Part shown: piece by piece, positions 11,705-46,823 of the stretch | How positions within the stretch are numbered: position 1 is the stretch's first letter | Layout: each line of letters begins with the position of its first letter | DNA from: an uncultured delta proteobacterium | GTDB taxonomy: Bacteria; Desulfobacterota; Binatia; Binatales; Binataceae | DNA length: 64,000 bases | Direction of reading: 5' to 3' | Assembly: GCA_963724765.1 (NCBI GenBank) | Contig: CAVRVY010000003.1 | Location: 640,001 to 704,000, forward strand | The notes under the pieces: model-generated | Told to the model about the DNA's origin: nothing | The model's database searches: none | Seen by the model: only the letters and a program-made list of their open reading frames with translations | Program-made: the position numbers and the translations under genes

Positions 11705-12868
11705 GTGAGCAGAGGAGAAACGCTCGAGGTCCGAGGCGACCTCCTACGATGGGCTCGTGAAACAGCCGGTTTCACGATCCCTGGAGCCGCAAAGAAGGCT
11801 CGTCTCAGCGCTGACAGGCTCGCCGAATGGGAGTCTGAGTATGGTCTGCCAACGCCTGGACAACTGGAGCATCTGGCCGATCTATACAAGCGCCCGACCG
11901 CTACGTTCTTCCTAGAGAGCCCGCCTACTGAACCGTCACTGCCTCCTGATTTTCGCACCCTTCCATCGGACGAGGGCATGGAATTCACCCCAGTCACGTT
12001 GTTCGCCATCCGACGTGCTAGGCGTCTCCAGACTGTATTCCTACAGGTCTCCGAGCTTGTGGTCGGACCGCGCCAAGAGACGCTAGAGATAGCACTCTCC
12101 GAAGGGGCCGGTCCGTCCGCGCAAAAAGCGCGCGACCGCCTGGCTATTCCCGTAGATCAACAGTTCTCGTGGAAAGATCCGCGCGTCGCGCTGAAGACTT
12201 GGAGAGCCGCGGTAGAAAGTACGGGTGTGCTCGTTTTTCAGTTCAGCTTTCCGCTCAGCGAGGCCCGCGGATTCTCACTGCCCGGCCGCGTATCCACGAT
12301 TGTCCTAAACTCCAAAGGCGCACCAGCAGCGCGTAGCTTCACGTTGTTTCACGAGTGGGCTCATTTGCTTTTGCGAGAGCCCGGAATCTGCATTCCAGAC
12401 GAGCGCCACGCCGCTACCCCTGGGGCAAATAAAGTGGAGTCTTTTTGCAATGCGTTTGCCGGCAATCTTCTGGTTCCACAAGCGATCCTCGAGGAGCGTT
12501 TCGCTTCTGGGCGCCAACTAGAGACAGCAGAATTTGTCAGCCAGCTTGCCGAGGAATTTGCAGTAAGTAAATTTGTCATTCTTCGAAGACTTCTTGATGT
12601 TAGGTTTCTCACGAACAGCGACTACCAACAGTTTTCTGGACAACTCAGTAAAGGCACCAGGTCCGACAATACAAAGAAGCGAAGCGGCGGGCCAAGCCCA
12701 GCAGTCAGGGTCGTCTCGGAACTTGGGCCGACGTTCACTTCGAGAGTGCTTGATGCGTACAACGCAGGAATGATTGACCCATCGCAAGTCTGTGATTACC
12801 TGTCCGTTAGGATTAAGCATGTGTCGAAGATCAACACTCTGCTTCCCCACGAGCAGCAACTGGGCTGA
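11705..12868 (+). CDS. XRE-HTH fused to ImmA/IrrE metallopeptidase
   Basis: N-terminal HTH; FTLFHEWAH (HExxH); ESFCNAFAGNLLVP. Confidence 0.9.
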   Translation: MSRGETLEVRGDLLRWARETAGFTIPGAAKKARLSADRLAEWESEYGLPTPGQLEHLADLYKRPTATFFLESPPTEPSLPPDFRTLPSDEGMEFTPVTLFAIRRARRLQTVFLQVSELVVGPRQETLEIALSEGAGPSAQKARDRLAIPVDQQFSWKDPRVALKTWRAAVESTGVLVFQFSFPLSEARGFSLPGRVSTIVLNSKGAPAARSFTLFHEWAHLLLREPGICIPDERHAATPGANKVESFCNAFAGNLLVPQAILEERFASGRQLETAEFVSQLAEEFAVSKFVILRRLLDVRFLTNSDYQQFSGQLSKGTRSDNTKKRSGGPSPAVRVVSELGPTFTSRVLDAYNAGMIDPSQVCDYLSVRIKHVSKINTLLPHEQQLG

Positions 12869-12874
12869 AGCAGC

Positions 12875-13342
12875 GTGTATGTCATCGACACAAGCTCTTT
12901 GATTGACCTCGGCCTGCACTATCCGCGCGATACCTTTCCGTCAGTATGGAATGAAACAGAAGTTTTGATAAAGCGAGGAACCCTCCTATCTCCTCGCGAG
13001 GTCTTGCGAGAGTTGGAAAGGGGCGACGATCAATTGGTTCGCTGGGCTAAGCGTCAGAAGGGATTCTTTGTGCCGGTAAATCGGCCGCAAACAGTCAGGA
13101 TAAGAGAGATTCAGCAGAGATTCCCGCAAATCACCGACAACATGGCACTCGGACCATGCGCGGATCCATGGCTCGTGGCACTGGCTACCGTTCTGTCCGG
13201 GCCTCACTCCGCTTGGTTCGTAGTCACTCAGGAGCGCATGGCCGGCCCCGGCTCACACAAGGTTCCGAACGTTTGCGCGGCTTTTGGAATAACGAGCTTA
13301 AATCTTCTCGATTTTTTCAGAGCCGAAGGGTTTAAGTTTTAA
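12875..13342 (+). CDS. PIN-like DUF4411-type protein
   Basis: YVIDTSSLI, ADPWLVALA, VVTQE and KVPNVC motifs; directly downstream of the ImmA gene. Confidence 0.8.
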   Translation: MYVIDTSSLIDLGLHYPRDTFPSVWNETEVLIKRGTLLSPREVLRELERGDDQLVRWAKRQKGFFVPVNRPQTVRIREIQQRFPQITDNMALGPCADPWLVALATVLSGPHSAWFVVTQERMAGPGSHKVPNVCAAFGITSLNLLDFFRAEGFKF

Positions 13343-20754: not shown

Positions 20755-20830
20755 GCCACCCTAGCTCAGTTGGTAGAGCAGCTGATTCGTAATCAGCAGG
20801 TCGTCGGTTCGAATCCGACGGGTGGCTCCA
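20755..20830 (+). tRNA. tRNA-Thr(CGT)
   Basis: 76-nt cloverleaf: GCCACCC/GGGTGGC acceptor stem, anticodon loop TTCGTAA, GGTTCGAATCC, encoded CCA. Confidence 0.97.
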
Positions 20831-21215
20831 AAAAATCCAGCAAACATAAGGCTTTGAAGATTCATTTTAGTGGCCATTCCGTCGATCTGTTGCGGATTGT
20901 CCGAAAAATGTCCGAGTTTGTCAAGTTCCATTCGAAGAGGTTGCGTCGCGCGCTTGCGTTTAACGCGTGCTCTATTGGATCGTTTGCATGGACGTGCGAT
21001 CGTTGCAGGTCGATAACGATATGGAGTTCCCGGGCGTCACCTGCGCGCTGGCTGTTGCGGCATTCGGGCGCCAGCATTCAGGCGCTAAATTTCTTGGCAA
21101 ACTGTCGCCCTTTTCATTCTATAACTCCGAGACTGTCATCAACGAATTACGTCATCCGATTAATGATCTTCCTACCGTGAGTAGAGCCTGTGTAACCCGC
21201 CCGAACTAATCGCGT

Positions 21216-21371
21216 TCAACGGAAATCCAGTGTGAGCGTTTCGTTGACTCTGACGGGCGCGAAATGGCCCTTGGCGCTCTCGTATTTGAGCCCGAATATG
21301 TGCGCGAAAAACTTTGCCGACGCCTCCTTGTCGTGCGCCGGTACGACCGTGTGGTTCAACGCAATGGTGAT
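21216..21371 (-). pseudogene. Truncated VOC-family gene
   Basis: ITIALNHTVVPAHDKEASAKFFAHIFGL...LDFR*. Confidence 0.7.
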
Positions 21372-21919
21372 GACTCACCTCCATCGACGAGTTGAAAGTC
21401 ATTCCTCTGCTTCAGCAGGTGATCGTCACTAAGCCGCAAGTTCCCGTCGTGGGTGTGGCTACGGAACATAAGATCGGTTGATCTTCGTCAGACACAAGCT
21501 ATCCGTCTCCGATTTGGCGGCGGCATGATCTCCGCCGATCGCGGGGCGCGGGATAGACCCGCGTCGGACCCACCTTCATCTCGACGTCGGGCGGCATCTT
21601 CCAGAGTACCTGCCTTCGAACAGCGCGATCAAACCGCAGGACATGAGTTGGAGCGGAGCCGGGAATGCCTGGCGATCTAGGTGGACGCATCACTGACCGA
21701 CGCGTCGGTAACCAGAGTCTGGACGGCGATGCTTGCGTTTCGCCGCGTCGCCAACACCGAACGTTGCGTTCGCCAACAACAGGAATCGGCACCGAATTCC
21801 TCGCGCACAGAGAGAAAATCGAAGTGACGCGGCATAGTTCGACATGTGGAGGTCAACCCAGCCGTCTCGCGCGGATAGAACGGGCGGGCGATCTTGGCGC
21901 GCGGATACGTTGACAACGC

Positions 21920-22462
21920 CTATCCACGCTCGACACTGGCTAATGATGGACCATTGTAGTGATAGTCTTGGCGACACGCCTGCATCAGCGCGCGCATATC
22001 TTGCCGGAGTTCCTCGAGCGTCGGCCGCCCAACAAACCACCAACCCTCATAGATCGCGTGGATCGTCAGGTCAGGAGCCAGGGAAAAGGTATAGGGAAGG
22101 GCGACCAGGCCGTATCTGAAATCCGGTGGGGTCACTTCCACGATATCGAGTTGCCGGATGGCCCGACGCTCGTGGTCACTGAGAAACGTATACGTCGCAG
22201 CCAGTCCGGCGCGGAAGGCCGCGCTCACTTCTGGCGGGTCGGTGCTGACGACGGCCAGCTTACAGTAGTTGACCTGCAAGTCCTCTTGTAATTCGACGAA
22301 GCGCCGCAACTGCAGCGCGCATTTCGGTCACCAATAGCCACGGTAGAAGCTCAGGATCAGCGGAAAGCCACTCGCCAGTTCAGACAGCGTGATCAGTTGC
22401 TGCCGATGATCGGGTACCGTCAAGTCCGGGAATCGTTTGCCCACAGCGAGATCGGAATGCAT
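21920..22462 (-). CDS. Putative selenoprotein AhpC/TSA-like redoxin (UxxC)
   Basis: RBS AAAGGAG; MHSDLAVGKRFPDLTVPD...FYRGYW-TGA-PKC continues in frame into ORF 21920..22309; TGA (22328-22330) sits at the first Cys of the CxxC. Confidence 0.85.
22297..22326 (-). promoter_or_regulatory. Bacterial SECIS-like hairpin
   Basis: CGAA-ATGC-GCGCTGC-AGTT-GCGGCGC-TTCG; the G-containing apical loop starts 16 nt after the UGA. Confidence 0.65.
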
Positions 22463-22514
22463 AGGCATCTCCTTTCATGTCATAGCAACCGTCAATGGCG
22501 GCTGAGCGGTTTTC

Positions 22515-23510
22515 CTAATGTGACCGAAACAACGCCACCAGAAAATAGCGCCGAGCGTCAAACCAGGTACGACGCAGAACGAGATTGGCCCGGTATCCTA
22601 AGTCACGGACTTCGTTCGGAGAATACTTATACGAACTTTCCGTATGAATCGTTTCATCTTTGCGAAACGATATGGCTTGCTCGATCTTGGCGATGGGCAC
22701 GTGCTGAGGCAGCCGGCTGCGGAGGTGCATCTCAATACGGCCCCTCTCAGCGTTGTAGAGGGCCACGTGCTCAAAGGTTTGCGGGTCAAACCGCCCGCCA
22801 AGTTCATAATTAATACGGTGGAGTACATTCTTGTTGAACGCAGCCGTGACGCCTTGGGCGTCGTCATAGGCCGGGACGAGGATCGCGGGCGATTTTTTCA
22901 GGTCGATACCCAGCAGAAAGACGTCCTCAGGTCCCAGAATGGCCGCCATACGCCGGAGGAACTCGACACTTTCTTCAGGCGTGAAGTTCCCCAGACTGGA
23001 CCCGAAAAAGGCCACGGCTTTCTTCTCCAGTTGAAACGCCTGAATGACCTCCGATTCTCCCGCGAAATCGGTATGCATGGCACGAATCTCAATATGGGTA
23101 AATTCCTGCAGGAGTCGGTTGGCCGTGTCCAAGAGGATTTCTCGAGAAATGTCTACCGGACAATAGCGAAACGGTTGCTCCGCCCGTTCATACGCCGTGA
23201 GGAGGTAACGGGTCTTTCTGGCATACCCGGAGCCGAACTCCACCAGCGCCAGGTGACCAATCTCGGCATGTATCTCGGCGGCATAGGTGCTGAGAATCTC
23301 CAATTCTGCCCGGTAGAGATAGTACTCGGGTAAGGCGCAAATCTGCTCGTAGAGTTGAGAGCCGCGCTCGTCATAAAAATACTTCGGCGGCAGCCATTTT
23401 TGTGGGGCGGTTAGGCCAAACGCCACGTCCCGCGCAAAGGCGTGCCGGTGCACCGCTACATCCATGTCATGAAACTGAAATCGCTTGTTGGGAATGGCCT
23501 CGGTCTCCAT
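22515..23510 (-). CDS. egtD: L-histidine N-alpha-methyltransferase
   Basis: LPPKYFYDERGSQL, LPEYY, VEFGSG, AYDDAQGVTAAFNKN and IHTESSYKY. Confidence 0.95.
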   Translation of the reverse strand: METEAIPNKRFQFHDMDVAVHRHAFARDVAFGLTAPQKWLPPKYFYDERGSQLYEQICALPEYYLYRAELEILSTYAAEIHAEIGHLALVEFGSGYARKTRYLLTAYERAEQPFRYCPVDISREILLDTANRLLQEFTHIEIRAMHTDFAGESEVIQAFQLEKKAVAFFGSSLGNFTPEESVEFLRRMAAILGPEDVFLLGIDLKKSPAILVPAYDDAQGVTAAFNKNVLHRINYELGGRFDPQTFEHVALYNAERGRIEMHLRSRLPQHVPIAKIEQAISFRKDETIHTESSYKYSPNEVRDLGYRANLVLRRTWFDARRYFLVALFRSH

Positions 23511-23601
23511 GGCTATCCCTTACCACGATCTCAAACCCATCGTCGTGGTTGACTCGCTTGGACAAATCGTAGGCGCGCTGGCCCACTTTGGGGCGTAGAG
23601 C

Positions 23602-24942
23602 TTACTCTCGGATCGTTCTGGCGAGCCGGATCCCCATGAACTGCCATCGGACATCGGCAGGGAAAAAGTTCCGATAAGTGGGCCGGATATGCGAAATCGA
23701 GGTCGCACACGACCCGCCGCGCAACACAAACTGGTTGGCCATAAATTTGCCGTTATACTCCCCCAACGCGCCTGGGGATGCGGTGTACCCGGGATAGGGG
23801 GAATAGTGACTTTGGGTCCACTCCCAAACGTCTCCAAAAATTTGGACCAGCGGGACAGCGCTGTCGATCTGACTGATGGGGACGGGATGGAAAGCTTGCT
23901 GCTCAACGAAATTACCCCTAATCAGCAGAGGCATCGCCGCAACTTCCCATTCGGCCTCGGTGGGCAAGCGCGCATCGGCCCAACGTGCGTAGGCGTCCGC
24001 TTCGTAATAACTGACATGACACACGGGTTCGGCTTCCCGCACGGATCGCATCCCGGCAAGGGTCATCATCCACCAGGTGCCATCGCGTTGTTCCCAATAC
24101 AGCGGAGCCTGCCACCCTTCGCGCCGGACCGTATCCCAACCCATGGACAGCCATAGCTCCGGCCGTTCATACCCCCCATCGGCCATGAAGGCCAAGTACT
24201 CCCCGTTGGTGACCAGCCGCGACGCCAACTCGAACCGCTCGACAAAGCTCCGATGTCGAGGGAACTCATTATCGAAGGCGAAACTCTGACCCTCGTGGCC
24301 AATCCAGTAGACGCCTTCGAGAAAGCTCACCCATCGGAGTGGGCCCACCGTCGGTACACTTGTGGGGATGTCGGCGGTTACATACGTAGGTCGCAGTGGG
24401 TTGCAGGCGAAGTTGTATTTCACGTCGGTCAAGAGAAGTTCTTGATGCTGTTGTTCATGGTGCAAGCCGAGCTCGACGACCGGAGACCAGCGCTCGAGCG
24501 TCTCGCCATGTAAACCTTCCAAAAAGGCGGTCATATGCTGGTCGACATGGGCTCGATAGCGATAGACCTCCTCAACGGCTGGACGTGAGAGTAGCCCCCG
24601 TTTGGGGCGGCAATGCCGCTCACCAGCCGCCACGTAATAGGAATTGAAGAGATACGCATAGGAGGGATGCGGCGATCTATAGCCCGGAGAAGCCAGGGCC
24701 AGAATAAAGGTTTCGAAAAACCAACTCGTGTGTGCCAGATGCCACTTAGGGGGGCTCACATCCGGCATGCCCTGAATGACGTAATCTTCCGTCATCAAAG
24801 GCTGGCAGAGTCGGTCGGTAAACTGTCGCACCTGATGGTAACGCCTGACAAGGGCCTCGTGGTGGGCAGTCTCAGCGAGACCATAGAGGACAGTTGCGCG
24901 ATGAATATTGTGATTGATGGGCACATTGCTCTCCTCTTCCAC
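23602..24942 (-). CDS. egtB: Ergothioneine sulfoxide synthase (DinB + FGE domains)
   Basis: SPPKWHLAHTSWFFE, FNSYY, HEQQHQE and GEYNGKFM..VLRGGS. Confidence 0.95.
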   Translation of the reverse strand: MEEESNVPINHNIHRATVLYGLAETAHHEALVRRYHQVRQFTDRLCQPLMTEDYVIQGMPDVSPPKWHLAHTSWFFETFILALASPGYRSPHPSYAYLFNSYYVAAGERHCRPKRGLLSRPAVEEVYRYRAHVDQHMTAFLEGLHGETLERWSPVVELGLHHEQQHQELLLTDVKYNFACNPLRPTYVTADIPTSVPTVGPLRWVSFLEGVYWIGHEGQSFAFDNEFPRHRSFVERFELASRLVTNGEYLAFMADGGYERPELWLSMGWDTVRREGWQAPLYWEQRDGTWWMMTLAGMRSVREAEPVCHVSYYEADAYARWADARLPTEAEWEVAAMPLLIRGNFVEQQAFHPVPISQIDSAVPLVQIFGDVWEWTQSHYSPYPGYTASPGALGEYNGKFMANQFVLRGGSCATSISHIRPTYRNFFPADVRWQFMGIRLARTIRE

Positions 24943-24976
24943 TTGTCTTCACCTCGACACCCAGATAGCCGCCTCC

Positions 24977-25633
24977 TCAGCCTCGCGATTCTCGCACGAG
25001 ATCCACCAACTCGCCAAAGCTTTCGATGACGTGGTCCGGTGCGCACTGCAACAGCGCTTCCCGCGTGCCAAAGCCGTAGGTGACGGCACAGGTCTTGGTG
25101 CCGGCTGCCTTCCCTGCCAGGACATCGGCAGGGGTATCGCCGACCATCAGCGCGTGTGGCGGCGCACAGTGCAACACGGCGAGGGCCGCAAGTATGGTGT
25201 CGGGGGCGGGCTTGAGGCGCAGACCAGGGCTACCACCTTGAATGTGCTGGAAGAAGGGAATCAGGGCCAGCCGCCGCAAGACGATCTCCGCTTGCCCTGA
25301 CTCTTTGGTGGTGACGACGCCGAGCGTAAAGGTGGACAAGGCCTGTAAGGTGAGGATAACCCCAGGGTAGGGTCGGGTCAGGCAGGCGTCCTGCCGGGTA
25401 TATGTGCGGCGGTATGCGGTCAGGAAGGCGCTGAGCAGCGGGGGTGACAACATACCCCCGAGCTCGCTGAGCATCTTGGCGAGTGGCTTGCCGATGTGCT
25501 GGGCAATCGCGGTGGCGCTGGGCGGAATCCCACCAACCACAGTCCGCCAGGCGTTCTGAAACGCCACAGCGATGTCGCGCCGGGAATCGACCAGCGTGCC
25601 ATCGAGGTCACACAAGATGGTGGTGATTGTCAT
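24977..25633 (-). CDS. HAD-family phosphatase
   Basis: DLDGTLVDS, KPAPD and MVGDT..D motifs. Confidence 0.9.
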   Translation of the reverse strand: MTITTILCDLDGTLVDSRRDIAVAFQNAWRTVVGGIPPSATAIAQHIGKPLAKMLSELGGMLSPPLLSAFLTAYRRTYTRQDACLTRPYPGVILTLQALSTFTLGVVTTKESGQAEIVLRRLALIPFFQHIQGGSPGLRLKPAPDTILAALAVLHCAPPHALMVGDTPADVLAGKAAGTKTCAVTYGFGTREALLQCAPDHVIESFGELVDLVRESRG

Positions 25634-25956
25634 GATCTTTCCTCGCGCCCAAGCCTCCTCTTTCATGCCCCTATCAAGCCATTACCTCAGGCCATCGCAT
25701 CTCCCGCTGCAGGCTGCGGTAACACCCAAGGCACGACATACGTAGGTAGCTACAAACTCAGCAGAGTCGAGCAATACCAACAATGGCTGCGCACGTCGGT
25801 GGAACATATCTATTCGTTACCATCGCGGCTGATTGGCGAACGGGTTACCGTACGCGATCGGGCGTATAATCCGCTCGCTGGTGCGCAGCCGGCAAGAATA
25901 ATTGTCGCTGATCGGCAAAAAACAATTCATCGCTGTACATTCTAAAATCGGTGCCC

Positions 25957-27273
25957 ATGCGCAACGCCATATTCTATCTCACGTACAATGGGCTCTATAA
26001 CTTCACCAATGGCATCGGCACGCAAACCCAGCTCCTGATCAGCGGCCTCGAAGTACTGCGGGAGATGCTGGTCAGACGGTATGGCCCCATCGACGTGCAT
26101 GTGGTCTGCCCCTCGCCCGATGTGCATACCTGGGGCTATGATCACGCCTTCTTTCTGCGGCAGCAAGAACGTCTGGCGCCACTCGGTGGGCAGGTGCACC
26201 TCATTCCGTACAAGCGGGAACCCACCCAAGATCTCTGGGAAATCCCTTCCTGGAGGGCCCTCTGTCAGAACGTCGCACCGCTGTTGCATACCCAAGCGGC
26301 GGCCTATGAGCGGTCGTTGATCATTTGTGTGGACCAGCCTTGGTTGCAGACGCCTTATGCGCTTGGAATGGCCCAAAGCCTTCCGCGTCAGGTCGATACG
26401 CTCTTGGTGCTCTATAGCACCGCGTTTATCCGGGACTGGGAGACGCCTGATGCGGCAGAGGTTGCCTGGGAACAAGAAGGGCTTGAGGCGTCACAGCCCG
26501 GTTCGCGGGTAGCGCTTGCCGACATTTGCCCGTCGTTTACCTCGCACCTCAAGACGCACTTCCGGCTGTCGGCGGGAAAGTTCGCGCCTTACACTTCGAG
26601 CATCCTCGTGGACGACCCCGACTTTGTCTTGCAGGACGAGACGGTCGTGCGCACAACGCTGCAGGCCTATGGCATCCCCCTCGATGCGGACCTGGTGTTG
26701 GCATTTGGCAGGGCTGCACCCATCAAAGGATTTGAGCGGCTCATTCCCGCCCTTGCGCCGCTGCGTGACCGGGTGCATTTCGTTCTCATCTCGGTACCCT
26801 ACATCAATGACGACTCGCAACAACGGGTGTATGACCAACTGCTGCAACAACACGCCATACGGGCAACCCACATCAAGGTGTTTACGCGTGATTTACCCCG
26901 TTCCCTATGCCAATGGGCTCGGACGAAAATAGTGATGGTCCCGTCCAGACACGAGACCTTCTCCAATATCCCGCTCGAAGTCGCGTTGTGGGCGCGCGAA
27001 AAGGGGCCCGTCATTGTGGCCTCGACAGCCGGTGGGTTCGCTGATCAAATCCAGCCAGGTATCACGGGATTTCTTGTCGATATCTTGTCTTGTCAGCACG
27101 TCACCCAGACGCTGCACCAAGTGCTCGATCTCTCCCCACAGGCCCAGGCCATCATTCGGCATCGGGCGCATCAACGGATTGTCCAGACATATGACTTCAT
27201 ACACAATTTTCCGGCGACCCTCCGTTGGTTTTGGCAGAGGGGGCCTCGGAGACCGGGCCAGCACGTGCGCTGA
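25957..27273 (+). CDS. GT4 (GT-B) glycosyltransferase
   Basis: FGRAAPIKG, PSRHETFSNIPLE and GGFADQI..G.TGFL. Confidence 0.85.
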   Translation: MRNAIFYLTYNGLYNFTNGIGTQTQLLISGLEVLREMLVRRYGPIDVHVVCPSPDVHTWGYDHAFFLRQQERLAPLGGQVHLIPYKREPTQDLWEIPSWRALCQNVAPLLHTQAAAYERSLIICVDQPWLQTPYALGMAQSLPRQVDTLLVLYSTAFIRDWETPDAAEVAWEQEGLEASQPGSRVALADICPSFTSHLKTHFRLSAGKFAPYTSSILVDDPDFVLQDETVVRTTLQAYGIPLDADLVLAFGRAAPIKGFERLIPALAPLRDRVHFVLISVPYINDDSQQRVYDQLLQQHAIRATHIKVFTRDLPRSLCQWARTKIVMVPSRHETFSNIPLEVALWAREKGPVIVASTAGGFADQIQPGITGFLVDILSCQHVTQTLHQVLDLSPQAQAIIRHRAHQRIVQTYDFIHNFPATLRWFWQRGPRRPGQHVR

Positions 27274-27353
27274 AGCTGACAGGGAGCACGAGTCAATACG
27301 GTGGAGGATGTTGCGAGGGTTTCGCCATAAGCGTGCCGACTGCCGTGAGCTTC

Positions 27354-28151
27354 TCAGGGGAACTGAGCCGGCCGGCCGTCAGGCTCCAGGATGGCGTTCA
27401 GGCGCTGGCAGGAGGCGATGACTTCATCGGCATAACCGGGAAACCAGGCATGCATCCACATGGGACGCTCGAAAAACGCTTGGGGCGGCTGCTCCGGGTG
27501 TCGAATGCCAACGCGCATCACCAACCCGCTGGCGTTGATGAAACTCACATCGTCCAGCAAGCGGCCGGGCGCCATAAATCCGATCGCAATGGAGCATAAC
27601 CCCGCGATACCCACCAGCGATGCCGCGACACCTCGCAGGCAAAAGGCCTGAGTGTGGGCCCGTACCTCTGCAGGCAGCGCCAGTAAAACCGTGCGCATCG
27701 TCAAGCCGGAAAAGACCGTATCATCAACCACCGCCAGGGAGGATACCGTTTCAAGAGGCGGTAGCTGTTGCGCTAAGGGGATCCCGGTAGTCGTGACGAC
27801 GTTATAGCTACCGTGGCCATCTTCTTCACGGGTGATGTCCACGCGTGAGATCTTGGGGAACCAGCCTGTGTGCGCGTGTAGTTGTTGCGCGACACGTTCA
27901 CCGGCTCGACCGATGCCGATCGCCAGCGCAAAGGGGGCATACTTGTCGTCCGCCAGTAATGGCGCCATTTGAGACTCAAGAGTGAGCAGTACAACCCGCC
28001 TTGGGTCCCGGCACACAAGCGCGAAGAAGTCCCGCGTGAGATGCCAGGCCGGCGTTTCCTGCCCGTGGTGCCGAGAGACATAATCGCTGAGATCGTCGTG
28101 AATATATAATACCTTCGGGGTCGGCGCGGCGTAGGGCTCTGCACCCTTCAT
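27354..28151 (-). CDS. Type I phosphoribosyltransferase-fold protein
   Basis: PRPP-binding-like LAVVDDTVFSGLTM; GIGRAG loop. Confidence 0.65.
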   Translation of the reverse strand: MKGAEPYAAPTPKVLYIHDDLSDYVSRHHGQETPAWHLTRDFFALVCRDPRRVVLLTLESQMAPLLADDKYAPFALAIGIGRAGERVAQQLHAHTGWFPKISRVDITREEDGHGSYNVVTTTGIPLAQQLPPLETVSSLAVVDDTVFSGLTMRTVLLALPAEVRAHTQAFCLRGVAASLVGIAGLCSIAIGFMAPGRLLDDVSFINASGLVMRVGIRHPEQPPQAFFERPMWMHAWFPGYADEVIASCQRLNAILEPDGRPAQFP

Positions 28152-28403
28152 GGTCCTCATCTTCCTTCGCGACGGCAGATGGCGCCGCCCCATGGCTACT
28201 CGGAATACACCCGAGAGGTGTTACTATAGTGCATGCCATCGCATGGCGGAGTGGTTCGCCTGTGCCCGAAGATGGATCAATCTCCAGCGGCATCGCAATC
28301 CGCAGTTGCAGCACCCCACTAGAGTGTATCGTTTAAAAAGTACAGGGCCTATCATGCCAAGCAGCGACACGCCCCTTTCCCGAACTGTAAAGGGGTACAA
28401 TTC

Positions 28404-28480
28404 ATGAAAAAGATCACCGTAATAATACCAAGCTATAACAATCGCCAATGGTATGAGCGTAACCTCTCTTCTGTCGCTCA
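28404..28480 (+). pseudogene. N-terminal stub of a GT2 glycosyltransferase
   Basis: MKKITVIIPSYNNRQWYERNLSSV, after which similarity ends. Confidence 0.6.
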
Positions 28481-28620
28481 CTCTCGACGGTGTTCGCGCC
28501 GGACGTCATGGTCGATCGGCCGCGTGGGTGCTTAGTTCGATCATCTCTGGCCGAATTGCAAATGGAGAAGGACTCGTTGGGGGATGCGGCAGTCCGATGC
28601 GAACCGCTCTCTCCGGGTTC

Positions 28621-28683
28621 GTCAACCGGTTGACACTATGGGGCGGTTGACACGCGGTGGTTGACAGCTACACGAAGTTGACA
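28621..28683. repeat. Four GTTGACA direct repeats plus a GTCAAC inverted copy
   Basis: Copies at 28629, 28646, 28660 and 28677; palindrome gtcaaccggttgac. Confidence 0.8.
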
Positions 28684-29030
28684 ATGCAGGGAACGTACAT
28701 CATATCAAACGTTGTTTTATACAAGACTGCGGGCCCAAGGACAAGCGTCCACTCGGAGGTTCTGCCGGGATCACGATTGGGTCGAGGTTGGGAAAGCGTA
28801 CGGCTCGCGGCCTCGAGCGGTTGTAACCCATCGCGAAGCTGTCGTGTGGCAACATCCTGTCGCCTCATATGCGACCGACGATCAATCGATACTGAAGGAG
28901 CCTTTCTCTATTGCGCGGCAATCGGGACTGGTTGCGTTTATAGTTCTCGCGTGGCCACCTCGACTTCTAATCCATAGCCTTAAAGTTGCAAGAGTGATAA
29001 ACCGCGAATGGTTCCGCAGAGAGGTGCGCC

Positions 29031-30602
29031 GTGCATTGCTTCAGCTGTGGCTCTGGGAATGCAGAGACTGCGAAATTCTGCGATGAGTGCTCAGCACTGC
29101 TCTCTCTGCTGTGTCCTGCCTGCGGTAGAGCGAATCGGACGAACGCGAAATTCTGCAGCGGGTGCGCCACTTCGCTCGGAGCCGCCGCGCCGCGTCCAGC
29201 GGAGAGGTCGCACCCTCCATCTTTATCAATCACGACCGCCGCGGATCCCAATTCTTGCAGCGCCGAGGGTGAGCGGCGTCACTTATCCGTGCTGTTCTGT
29301 GACTTGGTAGGTTCGACCGGAATAGCAGCCAACCTTGATCCTGAAGACTGGCGCGAAACCCTAACCAGCTATTACCGCACCGCAACAGAAGCAATCGTGC
29401 GGTTCGGCGGATATGTCGCCCAATTTCTCGGAGACGGCCTATTGGTCTTCTTTGGTTACCCCGAGGCGCATGAGGACGATCCGCAGAGAGCGGTGCTTGC
29501 AGGGCTTGCGATCCTTAATGGGATGCGTGCGCTGAACAGCCGCATTGCGAACGACCGGTTACCTAAGCTCGCGGCGCGGATCGGGATACACAGCGGATCT
29601 GTGGTCGCAGGCGAGAGCAACGGCAAGGGAGCTAATGTGTTCGGCGACGTTCCCAACCTCGCTTCTCGGGTGCAGACCGCGGCAGCCCCCGACACGGTCC
29701 TGATAACCGCGGCTGTACATCACCTCGTGTCCGGACTTTTTGTGGTCGAAGATCGAGGTGAGCAACAGCTCAAGGGCGTCGAGCAACCGATTCGGTTGTT
29801 CCGCGTTATCCAGCCTAGCAGAGCGCGGGGCCGACTCGCTGCCGCGGCTGTTCAAAGACTAACATCTTTTGTCGGCCGCGAGGACGAATTGCGTTTCCTC
29901 CTGAACCGCTGGGATCAGGTGCGAGAGGGAGAGGGTCAGGTAGTGCTGGTACTAGGCGAAGCGGGAATTGGAAAGTCCCGCCTCGTCGAGCGTTTTCGTG
30001 AACAGATCGCGGATGATCCACATACCTGGGTTGAATCCGCGGCCGCCTTGTTACACCAGAACACACCCTTCTACACAGTGGAGGACATGCTGCAGCAGGG
30101 ATTGCGCTGGCGCGGTGAGCAGAGCGCGGACGAGCGCATTGCCGGACTCGAAGCATCCCTCAAGCTGGCGGGCGTCAAGCTCAGCGAAGCGGTTCCGCTA
30201 ATAGCGCCACTTATGAAACTGACGATTCCTGAAAGATACCTGCCGTCGCAAATGCCACCGGATCAACAGCGTAAGCGGCTTTTGGCGATAATCGGCGCGT
30301 GGGCATTCGGAACAGCACGAATCCAGCCACTCGTAATCGTGATTGAGGACCTGCATTGGGCCGATCCGTCAACCCTAGACAGAGCTGATGAACCATGGAG
30401 CCAAAGTTCAAAGCCGCTGCCAGACTGTACGGGTGGGACAGTTAAGCAAGGCAAACCTGAAAACATCAGGGCGACGCTCCCCCACATCTATGGCTGGTTT
30501 AGGGAGGGCTTTGACACTGCTGATTTAAGAGAAGCCAAAGCGCTGCTCGAGGAAAATCTGCCAGCGGCGGAGGAACTGAAGATTTCGCGACCAGAGACTT
30601 GA
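29031..30602 (+). pseudogene. Zinc-ribbon + class III adenylate cyclase + AAA ATPase, internally deleted
   Basis: Four CxxC; VLFCDLVGST, GDG and GEAGIGKS; after EDLHWAD the sequence jumps almost directly to the C-terminal WFREGFDTADL. Confidence 0.75.
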
Positions 30603-33717: not shown

Positions 33718-34557
33718 ATGGTGGGCGGTCCGATGGGGTACGGCGGGCGGAACATCCATTTCGGCATTCGCGAGCACGCCATGGCCGGAATCGCCACAGG
33801 TCTGGCCCTGCACGGCGGCGTCCTGCCCTTTGCCGCGACCTTCTTTGCGTTTTCCGACTACATGCGGCCGAGCATCCGGCTGGCGGCTTTGAGTAAGGCC
33901 CACGTGATCTATGTGTGGACCCACGACAGCATCGCATTGGGCGAGGACGGACCCACCTATCAGCCGGTGGAACAACTGGCAAGCCTGCGCGCGATTCCCG
34001 ATCTGATGCTGCTGCGCCCGGCCGAGGCCAACGAGACTGTGGAAGCGTGGAAGATTGCGGTGGCGCATACTGAGGGGCCGGTGGGGCTGGTGCTTACGCG
34101 CCAGAAGTTGCCCATTTTGGACCGCAGCACGCCGGCCCCCGCTGCGGGAACGGCAAAAGGAGCTTACGTCCTTGCCGACTGCGCCGCAGGTCCGCCCAAG
34201 CTTATCCTCATCGCTACCGGTTCCGAAGTGTCGGTCGCGCTCGAGGCGCACAACCAACTGACTCGTGAGGGAGTTGCAAGCCGGGTAGTCTCGATGCCGT
34301 GCTGGGATTTGTTTCAGGCGCAGCCGCAATCCTACAAAGACACGGTTCTTCCGCCCGGCGTCAAAGCGCGAGTCAGTGTTGAGGCAGGCTCCACGCTAGG
34401 ATGGGAGCGCTACGTGGGCCTCGAAGGCGCAATCATCGGGCTGAACCGCTTCGGTGCTTCAGCGCCGGGTGAAATCGTGATGCGTGAGCTGGGCTTTACT
34501 TCAGAGCACATTGTCAAAGTTGCCAAGTCTATCCTGGCCGGCTACCGCCCTGGGTAA
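33718..34557 (+). pseudogene. tkt: Transketolase, C-terminal half only
   Basis: [26 protein letters not shown] and ATGSEV; the N-terminal TPP domain is absent. Confidence 0.85.
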
Positions 34558-46734: not shown

Positions 46735-46823
46735 GCCGATGTGTAGCTCAAAGGTTCCAAGGCATGAGAGCCTGCTGATTTTTAATCAGTAGGTTGTCAG
46801 TTCGATTCTGACCATCGGCTTCA
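46735..46823 (+). tRNA. Atypical or pseudo tRNA (Thr-like body, TTT anticodon); likely integration site
   Basis: GCCGATG/CATCGGC acceptor, GCTC/GAGC D-stem with an 18-nt loop, GCTGA-TTTTTAA-TCAGT, GTCAG-TTCGATT-CTGAC; 2 extra nt after the acceptor; no CCA. Confidence 0.65.

Follow-up and report, generated by a model that had tools for sequence, protein, structure and literature searches.

What might a glycosyltransferase, a phosphoribosyltransferase-like protein and a redoxin contribute when their genes lie among those for ergothioneine synthesis? The question is raised by a 64,000-nucleotide stretch of genome from an uncultured delta proteobacterium of the Binataceae (contig CAVRVY010000003.1, positions 640,001 to 704,000; hereafter the window), in which a conserved block of about 6.6 kb (21899-28476) holds egtB and egtD. 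Beside them lie genes for a HAD-type phosphatase, a family 4 glycosyltransferase (GT4), a phosphoribosyltransferase (PRTase)-like protein and a redoxin with an in-frame TGA codon, and the remnant of a family 2 glycosyltransferase (GT2) (Table 1). The novelty lies in what accompanies a known ergothioneine/selenoneine core: an accessory module that is conserved and so far undescribed, and a selenoprotein whose family is mis-annotated. The explanation we favour, with confidence that is about evenly balanced and drawn from sequence, is that the core is accompanied by a conserved tailoring and redox module that would S-glycosylate, and perhaps ribosylate, ergothioneine.

The genes lie at the positions given in the original prediction. 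On the minus strand HAD, egtB, egtD and the redoxin gene follow one another with intergenic gaps of 34, 91 and 52 bp, within the 100 bp that had been claimed. The coordinates bear out the divergent GT4, separated from HAD by about 285 bp, and the PRTase-like gene, which converges on GT4 across 80 bp. The GC content, measured in 2-kb windows, lies between 0.53 and 0.66 over the window and between 0.57 and 0.60 across the cluster.

Table 1. Positions and supporting observations for the features of the block (numbering of the 64,000-nucleotide window).
Feature	Position	Strand	Observations
AhpC/TSA-fold redoxin, 180 codons	21920-22462	-	Pfam AhpC-TSA; in-frame TGA at 22328-22330, motif GYW-U-PKC
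Candidate selenocysteine insertion sequence (SECIS) hairpin	22301-22318	-	7-bp stem, loop AGUU; begins 10 nt after UGA; single-sequence folding
egtD, histidine N-alpha-trimethyltransferase	22515-23510	-	PF10017 1e-109; TIGR03438 equivalog 362 bits (cutoff 291)
egtB, type II sulfoxide synthase	23602-24942	-	FGE-sulfatase + DinB_2; TIGR03440 578 bits (cutoff 360)
HAD-IA phosphatase, PpaX/phosphoglycolate-phosphatase-like	24977-25666	-	HAD_2 3e-31, 109 bits (cutoff 24)
GT4 (GT-B) glycosyltransferase, LmbT-like	25951-27273	+	Pfam Glycos_transf_1; likely start ATG 25957
PRTase-like protein, 265 aa	27354-28151	-	ORF reaches 28193; homologues begin at Met 28151
GT2 stub, first 24 codons	28404-28475	+	tblastn with the 245-aa GT2 of locus L001: 22/24 residues identical, nothing beyond

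The core resembles the two-gene egtB-egtD cluster of the Chloracidobacterium thermophilum type, in which EgtD and a cysteine-using EgtB are likewise adjacent and co-directional, and egtA, egtC and egtE are missing. The closest solved relative of the window EgtB is the cysteine-using C. thermophilum enzyme (6qki/6o6l/8qf6; E = 1e-161), with Mycobacterium-type EgtB from M. thermoresistibile at 3e-35 and SenA at 7e-28 in the same PDB sequence search. The protein passes the TIGR03440 cutoff and reaches 337 bits with the SenA model NF041186, below the cutoff of 420. The absence of egtA, egtC and egtE from the locus is borne out, as scans of the seven cluster open reading frames (ORFs) and of 45 flanking window ORFs of at least 150 aa found no domain of these types. 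The same ORFs hold no pyridoxal phosphate-dependent lyase domain (a C-S lyase, EgtE or equivalent), and a C-S lyase may be encoded elsewhere in the genome. The cluster proteins gave no match to the SenB model TIGR04348 at E <= 0.001, and no SelD-type domain (SenC) was seen among the window ORFs scanned. What sets the pair apart from the C. thermophilum type is its place in a conserved block whose other products are a selenocysteine (Sec) redoxin, the LmbT-like GT4, the PRTase-like protein and the HAD phosphatase.

Whether these additional genes belong with the core is a matter of how regularly they travel with it. A scan of species-representative genomes with a six-sequence GT4 alignment gave 29 loci (L001-L029), which were searched with the proteins of the window and with those of loci from Candidatus Entotheonella. 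Twenty-one of them have a GT4 at least 58% identical to that of the window (L001-L020 and L029; the close set), and eight have one that is 31-37% identical (L021-L028; the distant set). Within the close set, a PRTase gene adjoins GT4 in 18/21 loci and egtD is found in 18/21 (absent from L016, L017 and L007, the last of which is a contig ending at HAD). A sulfoxide or selenoxide synthase is encoded in 17 loci (14 EgtB-II and three SenA), the TGA-containing redoxin in 17, HAD in 15 and GT2 in 12. GT4, PRTase, egtD and the Sec redoxin therefore occur together in 17-18 of the 21 loci, so that the proposed linkage to egtBD extends beyond this genome for GT4 and PRTase; HAD, absent from all three Entotheonella cluster loci, is a lineage-specific partner.

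The association also survives changes in gene order. Ten loci have the order of the window. In L006, L009, L011 and L014, egtD and the redoxin gene are found after PRTase and share its strand, with egtB-HAD still divergent from GT4. In L015 and L019 the neighbour that diverges from GT4 is egtD, and these loci hold neither PRTase, HAD nor EgtB. At the DNA level, similarity to the loci of the closest genomes (88-96% identity) is confined exactly to 21899-28476 and ends at both edges, which places the grouping of these genes beyond chance; that the block is a single functional unit appears highly likely. Its flanks are not syntenic with those of relatives, and the block behaves in this respect like a cassette.

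The linkage reaches from the Binataceae (Binatota) into a second candidate phylum, Tectimicrobiota, through Candidatus Entotheonella. Three loci of this group (L017:4646-11347, L029:2376-9309 and L020:2624-10324) each carry GT4, PRTase, GT2, senA and senB, with scores of 513-520 bits for SenA (cutoff 420) and 379-421 bits for SenB (cutoff 300). Both egtD and the TGA-redoxin are present in L020 and L029 as well. Between PRTase and GT4, L017 and L029 encode two oxidoreductases, one of the GFO/MocA type and the other an F420-type LLM enzyme, and a DinB protein of the mycothiol-S-transferase (MST) type follows the redoxin in L020. The constant set consists of egtD, the Sec redoxin, GT4 and PRTase, and the enzymes of sulfur or selenium insertion are exchangeable. 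As this set is retained despite the swap of synthase, GT4 and PRTase would be expected to deal with the hercynine-derived thio- or seleno-imidazole and not with the sulfur or selenium donor. Linkage to egtBD, on which the original prediction depended, is thus found elsewhere, through rearrangements and through replacement of EgtB by SenA/SenB, in two candidate phyla. In the literature searched, no paper linked Entotheonella or Binatia with selenoneine or ergothioneine. Just downstream of GT4 in L017 there is a group II intron reverse transcriptase/maturase (11894-13300, minus strand), and after it come genes for an integrase and an IS91-type transposase.

The Entotheonella loci invite comparison with the selenoneine cluster senA-senB-senC of Variovorax paradoxus. 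A sulfoxide/selenoxide synthase stands beside a GT-B glycosyltransferase and egtD in both settings, and the Entotheonella relatives of the block carry true SenA and SenB. The window itself differs in having EgtB instead of SenA, in lacking SenB and SenC, and in a GT4 that belongs to another glycosyltransferase family than SenB. One could propose a non-canonical selenoneine route in which the EgtB homologue works as SenA while GT4, with HAD or PRTase, makes a seleno-sugar donor in place of SenB, since an organism with a selenoprotein in this operon must handle selenium, and related clusters carry SenA/SenB. We consider such a route very unlikely, because the window enzyme satisfies the EgtB model, fails that of SenA and is nearest to C. 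thermophilum EgtB, and because no SelD-type domain was found among the window ORFs scanned. As a candidate SenB, GT4 fails on the missing TIGR04348 match noted above, and no SenB-described entry appeared among its Foldseek rows listed (ranks up to 50) or its 48 profile hits. Moreover, true SenB coexists with the same GT4 in Entotheonella, so that GT4 is not a SenB substitute. On these grounds the suggestion that the locus makes an alternative sugar-S/Se donor is disfavoured.

A more specific indication of what GT4 may act upon comes from its resemblance to LmbT, an enzyme described as joining ergothioneine to a GDP-octose on sulfur, reversibly, in lincomycin synthesis (PMC12945683). Searched as a single sequence against the PDB, GT4 had LmbT as its best and only full-length match (E = 2e-10). 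A profile of the 24-member GT4 family matched LmbT at E = 3e-40, the match extending from position 5 to 421 of 429, and the hit that came second was at 9.5e-21. The AlphaFold (AF2) model of GT4 has a predicted local distance difference test score (pLDDT) of 92.9, and when it was compared with the PDB by Foldseek, LmbT took the first six ranks (TM 0.82-0.90, E = 2e-31 to 2e-28), ahead of sucrose-phosphate synthase and MshA at about 1e-19. The margin of LmbT over other solved glycosyltransferases therefore amounts to about ten orders of magnitude by Foldseek E-value and twenty by profile E-value.

Some residues of the LmbT active site have possible counterparts in GT4. Arg260 of LmbT is described as binding the diphosphate and the ergothioneine carboxylate, and Trp101 as stacking on the trimethylammonium group (PMC12945683). 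The former aligns with Arg254 of GT4, which is conserved in at least 90% of the 24 family members; the latter aligns with position 95 (Leu here, Phe in the family), one residue before the conserved Trp96. By sequence profile and predicted fold, the likeness to LmbT, the sole enzyme so far known to S-glycosylate ergothioneine, is independent support for an ergothioneine-linked glycosyltransferase, beyond the evidence on which the original prediction was built. We put the chances that GT4 acts on a thio- or seleno-imidazole at roughly one half.

Set beside LmbT and CcbT, the ergothioneine S-glycosyltransferases of lincosamide synthesis, GT4 has LmbT as its best solved match over the full length by profile and fold, a conserved Arg that aligns with Arg260, an aromatic residue near the position of Trp101 and, like them, an ergothioneine context. 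It differs in its low identity (20-21%), in its guanine-pocket residues and in its surroundings, as no lincosamide genes were found among the window ORFs scanned. Ergothioneine is a transient carrier in the antibiotic pathway, whereas the window glycosyltransferase sits inside the ergothioneine/selenoneine cluster itself. Proteins of the MST/DinB class displace ergothioneine when lincomycin is made, and L020 is the only locus with such a protein adjacent. The pairs of glycosyltransferase and phosphatase in mycothiol (MshA) synthesis and the bacillithiol enzyme BshA offer another parallel: there too, a low-molecular-weight thiol that bears a sugar is assembled by a GT4 enzyme together with a phosphatase, and both MshA and BshA are lower-ranked structural neighbours of the window GT4. 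The window differs from these systems in lacking an inositol-phosphate or malate logic and any deacetylase or ligase genes, and its thiol would be a thiohistidine from EgtB and EgtD.

In the protein database, the best 120 GT4 homologues are 76-94% identical to the window protein, and among 50%-identity clusters there is one GT4 representative at 74% identity, the next full-length ones being at most 38% identical. A role of GT4 as a defence-system protein was also considered and set aside: the score with PF20706, the family of "GT4 in conflict systems", is 25.4 bits against a cutoff of 26 (0.6 short), and PADLOC models matched neither HAD, GT4, the PRTase-like protein nor the redoxin.

The redoxin is a real selenoprotein with a UxxC motif. 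When TGA is read as Sec, the frame extends upstream to an ATG at 22462 preceded by an AAGGAG ribosome-binding site. The TGA is kept in 17/17 related loci with both redoxin halves, in addition to the window, across two candidate phyla, and in those 17 loci exactly one codon, TGA, parts the two halves. The 44 codons upstream of it are 77-98% identical at the protein level, and their variable columns in 18 sequences fall 23/13/40 at codon positions 1/2/3, a coding pattern. It is this conservation of TGA, together with the coding-type substitution upstream, that establishes the protein as a selenoprotein and sustains the earlier Sec call. The best 120 of 1771 database homologues (E <= 0.001) are all 109-136 aa long and consist of the post-TGA part only, with no full-length Cys form among them; these entries are shortened gene calls, many labelled "peroxiredoxin".

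The same shortened annotations would also be seen if TGA were a disabling stop, leaving a pseudogene or a short 129-aa protein that starts past it, and the poor statistics of the candidate SECIS hairpin are compatible with such a stop. This explanation is extremely improbable, however, as the TGA occupies the first position of UxxC in all 17 loci and the window, the upstream codons change mostly at the third position, and a ribosome-binding site and ATG stand ahead of them. The hairpin was found at +10 to +30 after UGA in all eight variants folded, but it was no more stable than shuffled sequences (z -0.2 to -1.95). An RNAalifold consensus of the region has 10 pairs with little covariation, and two hand-set registers, with 81.5% and 78.8% paired cells, did no better than slid controls. 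There is one compensatory change (C-G to U-A), and no one register suits all 17 sequences. Given the lack of statistical support for the hairpin, the Sec call rests on codon conservation and not on this structure.

Bacterial selenoproteins that are thioredoxin-fold or peroxiredoxin-like and carry a UxxC motif are a known kind. The window protein has in common with them the AhpC/TSA fold and the replacement by Sec of the first Cys in a CxxC-type motif, and it may share a hairpin just downstream. It differs in that its family is fixed beside egtD and has no full-length Cys form among the best 120 homologues. The nearest NCBIfam model, "SelL-related redox protein", reaches 35 bits against a cutoff of 120. 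None of selA, selB, selC and selD was seen among the ORFs scanned in the window, and no tRNA-Sec was called there. A C-terminal redoxin remnant, in two frames and on the opposite strand, lies beside egtD and GT4 in L015 (8580-8877) and is probably a degraded copy.

The PRTase-like protein is less readily classified. It has no NCBIfam match, a PDB sequence search gave nothing below E = 0.2, a language-model atlas places it in unnamed clusters only, and the best 120 of its 1456 homologues, 76-97% identical, are nearly all unannotated. An alignment of 23 sequences contains the invariant segments GIGRAGE and VVDDTVFSGLTM, and in the latter D143, D144, T145, F147, S148, T151 and M152 are invariant in 23/23 sequences. 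The motif that binds phosphoribosyl pyrophosphate (PRPP) consists of an acidic pair followed by a small-residue loop, and VVDDTVFSGLTM has the form of such a loop. In agreement with a type I PRTase core fold, the Foldseek matches of the structural model listed at E <= 1e-3 comprise purine (type I) PRTases, PyrR and a hypothetical protein with bound ppGpp, all at prob 1.0 and with TM values of just 0.3-0.5; the one exception to these PRTase-type matches is a kinase at prob 0.35. That the protein ribosylates the thio- or seleno-imidazole is a tentative suggestion, which we regard as rather unlikely.

Three orientations of PRTase and GT4 were observed: convergent in Binataceae, PRTase directly downstream on the same strand in L020, and upstream in the L028 row. 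In L018 (10001-12207), the matches to GT4 and to PRTase are both broken into two adjoining segments that lie in different frames; these apparent frameshifts may be real decay or assembly errors. The HAD translation carries the catalytic motifs DLDGT (DxDGT) and GDTPAD (GDxxxD), and its closest NCBIfam models, PpaX and PGP, both score under their cutoffs.

Several observations weigh against a module that acts on ergothioneine. The equivalence of Trp101 is off by one residue in both GT4-LmbT sequence alignments, and Trp258, Thr289, Arg290 and Gln313 of the LmbT GDP pocket align with Phe, Pro, Tyr and Lys in GT4; with the guanine-pocket residues T289/R290/Q313 changed to P/Y/K, the sugar donor of GT4 is not predictable. 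For the PRTase-like protein, the Pfam Pribosyltran match (4e-4, 20.1 bits) is below the cutoff of 26.3 and the AF2 model is only moderately confident (pLDDT 71). PRTase is absent from three close loci (L015, L016 and L019), of which L016, a second Entotheonella GT4 copy, has no partner gene at all. Furthermore, 15 of the 21 close loci belong to closely related Binataceae-type metagenome-assembled genomes (MAGs), and identities across phyla are high (GT4 67-71%, PRTase 71-73%, egtD 69%, redoxin 82-84%). Such identities make horizontal transfer of the block likely, and the number of independent observations is accordingly small.

The distant set adds to these points. Its eight loci, five of which are on short contigs (3.5-11 kb), contain PRTase and HAD once (L028) and egtD, synthase and redoxin never. 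In L028, a gammaproteobacterial MAG with a GT4 of 33% identity, PRTase, HAD, GT4 and a GT1 gene are co-directional with no egt or sen gene within 10 kb, so a GT4/PRTase/HAD module can exist without ergothioneine genes. The distant GT4s of Patescibacteria, a Woesearchaeota MAG and Chloroflexi (an Anaerolineales MAG) have no partner at all. Neighbouring genes were scanned in six of these Patescibacteria, Woesearchaeota and Chloroflexi loci (all but L021). GT4 directly follows an RVT_1 reverse transcriptase and a 5'-3' exonuclease in L022 (1921-4393), L023 (595-3497) and L025 (8325-11278), and its neighbours include NUDIX genes in L022, L024 and L027 and NDK genes in L024 and L027. Around these GT4s, which are 31-35% identical, the genes thus repeatedly centre on nucleotides, a context unlike that of egt.

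These observations leave room for an explanation in which GT4, PRTase and HAD form a separate sugar- or nucleotide-metabolite module that shares an island or stress regulon with a plain egtBD-redoxin set and has no action on ergothioneine. Its product could, for example, be a glycoside in phosphorylated form that arises by a two-step route, as sucrose-phosphate and the mycothiol precursors do; both the explanation and this example seem to us less likely, though they deserve serious attention. Besides the L028 arrangement, the solitary GT4 of L016 and the nucleotide-type contexts of distant GT4s, it could draw on sucrose-phosphate synthase and MshA being next after LmbT structurally, on the divergence of the window GT4 from the egt operon, and on the cassette-like behaviour of the whole block with its non-syntenic flanks. 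Yet the linkage to the core outlasts two kinds of rearrangement as well as replacement of EgtB by SenA/SenB. PRTase and egtD-redoxin share a strand in the four rearranged loci, and GT4 keeps its divergent egtD in L015 and L019, where PRTase, HAD and EgtB are absent. The lead of LmbT over all other solved glycosyltransferases, on either scale, also argues against a module unconnected to ergothioneine.

Under the favoured explanation, tailoring of ergothioneine by the module, the first steps are supported by family models: EgtD makes hercynine, and the type II EgtB joins cysteine to it, giving hercynyl-cysteine sulfoxide. The linkage of the genes is observed, and the chemistry past EgtB is inferred. 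An unlinked C-S lyase would free ergothioneine via a sulfenic acid, and the substrate of the Sec redoxin might be either this sulfenic acid, replaced by a selenenic acid where selenoneine is made, or ergothioneine in its oxidised form. With a nucleoside diphosphate (NDP)-sugar as donor, the LmbT-like GT4 would place a sugar on the thione sulfur of ergothioneine, or on selenoneine in the case of Entotheonella, in a reaction that may be reversible. The PRTase-like protein could add a phosphoribosyl group from PRPP and HAD remove the phosphate, or both could contribute to the sugar part in some other way. These steps would end in a thiohistidine betaine that is glycosylated and possibly also ribosylated. 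A need for such a reductase is plausible on the SenA route, described in a preprint as passing through a selenoxide and then a selenenic acid that needs reduction, with a reduced Se-glycoside as side product (10.1101/2022.04.13.486033).

That side product suggests a different use of GT4. Run in reverse as a salvage enzyme, it would strip the sugar from reduced hercynyl-S/Se-glycosides, yielding an NDP-sugar and free selenoneine or ergothioneine; these glycosides would be dead-end products of the SenA type, formed after reduction by the Sec redoxin. LmbT is described as interconverting ergothioneine- and GDP-conjugated forms (PMC12945683), the by-product of SenA is described as a reduced hercynyl-SeGlcNAc selenoether (preprint 10.1101/2022.04.13.486033), and GT4 and the redoxin do sit with SenA/SenB in Entotheonella. 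We nevertheless think salvage improbable, both in its reaction and in the proposed source of its substrate. The window and its 14 EgtB-type relatives have a cysteine-type EgtB and no SenB, so no S-glycoside intermediate is expected in them, and yet they keep GT4 at 75-96% identity; moreover, salvage leaves PRTase and HAD unexplained.

A bolder version of the favoured tailoring scheme can also be drawn. PRTase would join the imidazole-2-thione or -selone ring, as a nucleobase analogue, to PRPP, HAD would dephosphorylate the product and GT4 would add a sugar, giving a nucleoside-like glyco-ergothioneine kept reduced by the Sec redoxin, a new class of low-molecular-weight thiol or selenol in Binatota and Tectimicrobiota. 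We regard this as speculative and quite unlikely in full. If true, it would be the thiohistidine counterpart of mycothiol and bacillithiol, with interchangeable sulfur and selenium versions.

The tailoring of such molecules appears to be seldom encountered. A 2026 JACS paper (PMC13674229) calls enzymatic tailoring of thio- and seleno-imidazoles "exceedingly rare", reports ATP-grasp dipeptides and names LmbT as the only other tailoring enzyme; in the co-occurrence table of that paper, group-1 glycosyltransferases next to these synthases are all counted as SenB. In the literature searched, egt or sen genes were not linked by any paper to an LmbT-like glycosyltransferase, to a PRTase or to a selenoprotein, with the qualification that the supplements of PMC13674229 could still list such a set. 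In the loci described here, the ergothioneine/selenoneine clusters of widespread soil and sponge bacteria have as fixed members an LmbT-like transferase, a protein resembling PRTases and a selenoprotein. If the module acts on the thiohistidine, it points to a new ergothioneine or selenoneine derivative, and to a dedicated reductase that turns the sulfenic acid into the thiol, or the selenenic acid into the selenol, a step hitherto without an assigned enzyme; it would also offer a ready six-gene target for expression. The annotation of the selenoprotein family is corrected in any case, given the shortened calls that make up the best 120 of its 1771 database homologues.

The right edge of the block is the GT2 stub. 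The original prediction had described a truncated GT2 at this edge; the remnant is real and does mark the edge, but its strand is corrected to plus. The 85-aa minus-strand ORF at 28224-28481, considered as the stub, has no Pfam or NCBIfam match. GT2 is full length in nine close relatives (L001, L002, L004, L007, L008, L010, L011, L014 and L018), and homologues of 27-33% identity occur in the Entotheonella loci. On either side of the block the sequence is poor in ORFs (about 20830-21900 and 28476-29030), and 19 small ORFs of these flanks had no Pfam match. A scan of 21700-28700 for promoters and terminators gave sites that are no commoner than in shuffled sequence and none that is informatively placed.

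The block had also been described as lying in an otherwise decayed island. This could not be established, since the signs of decay amount to the truncated GT2 and the ORF-poor flanks with their Pfam-negative small ORFs. Two ORFs further to the right, if partial, would fit such an impression: a 523-aa zinc-ribbon/cyclase/AAA_16 ORF (29031-30602, plus strand) and a 279-aa ORF (33718-34557, plus strand) with only the pyrimidine-binding and C-terminal domains of transketolase, each of which may be a partial gene.

Other features of the window lie further from the cluster or outside its coding sequence. A tRNA-Thr gene at 20755-20830 is about 1.1 kb to the left of the block, with the ORF-poor stretch in between. 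At 11705-13342 (plus strand), a gene with helix-turn-helix and IrrE/M78 peptidase domains is followed by a DUF4411 gene, an arrangement that resembles a regulator/toxin-type module. At 46737-46818 (plus strand) there is a second tRNA-like match in Rfam, of 82 nt and 35 bits, for which ARAGORN made no call. An integrase ORF of the phage type (46748-48028, minus strand) has its 3' end within this match, which may be the integration site of a mobile element.

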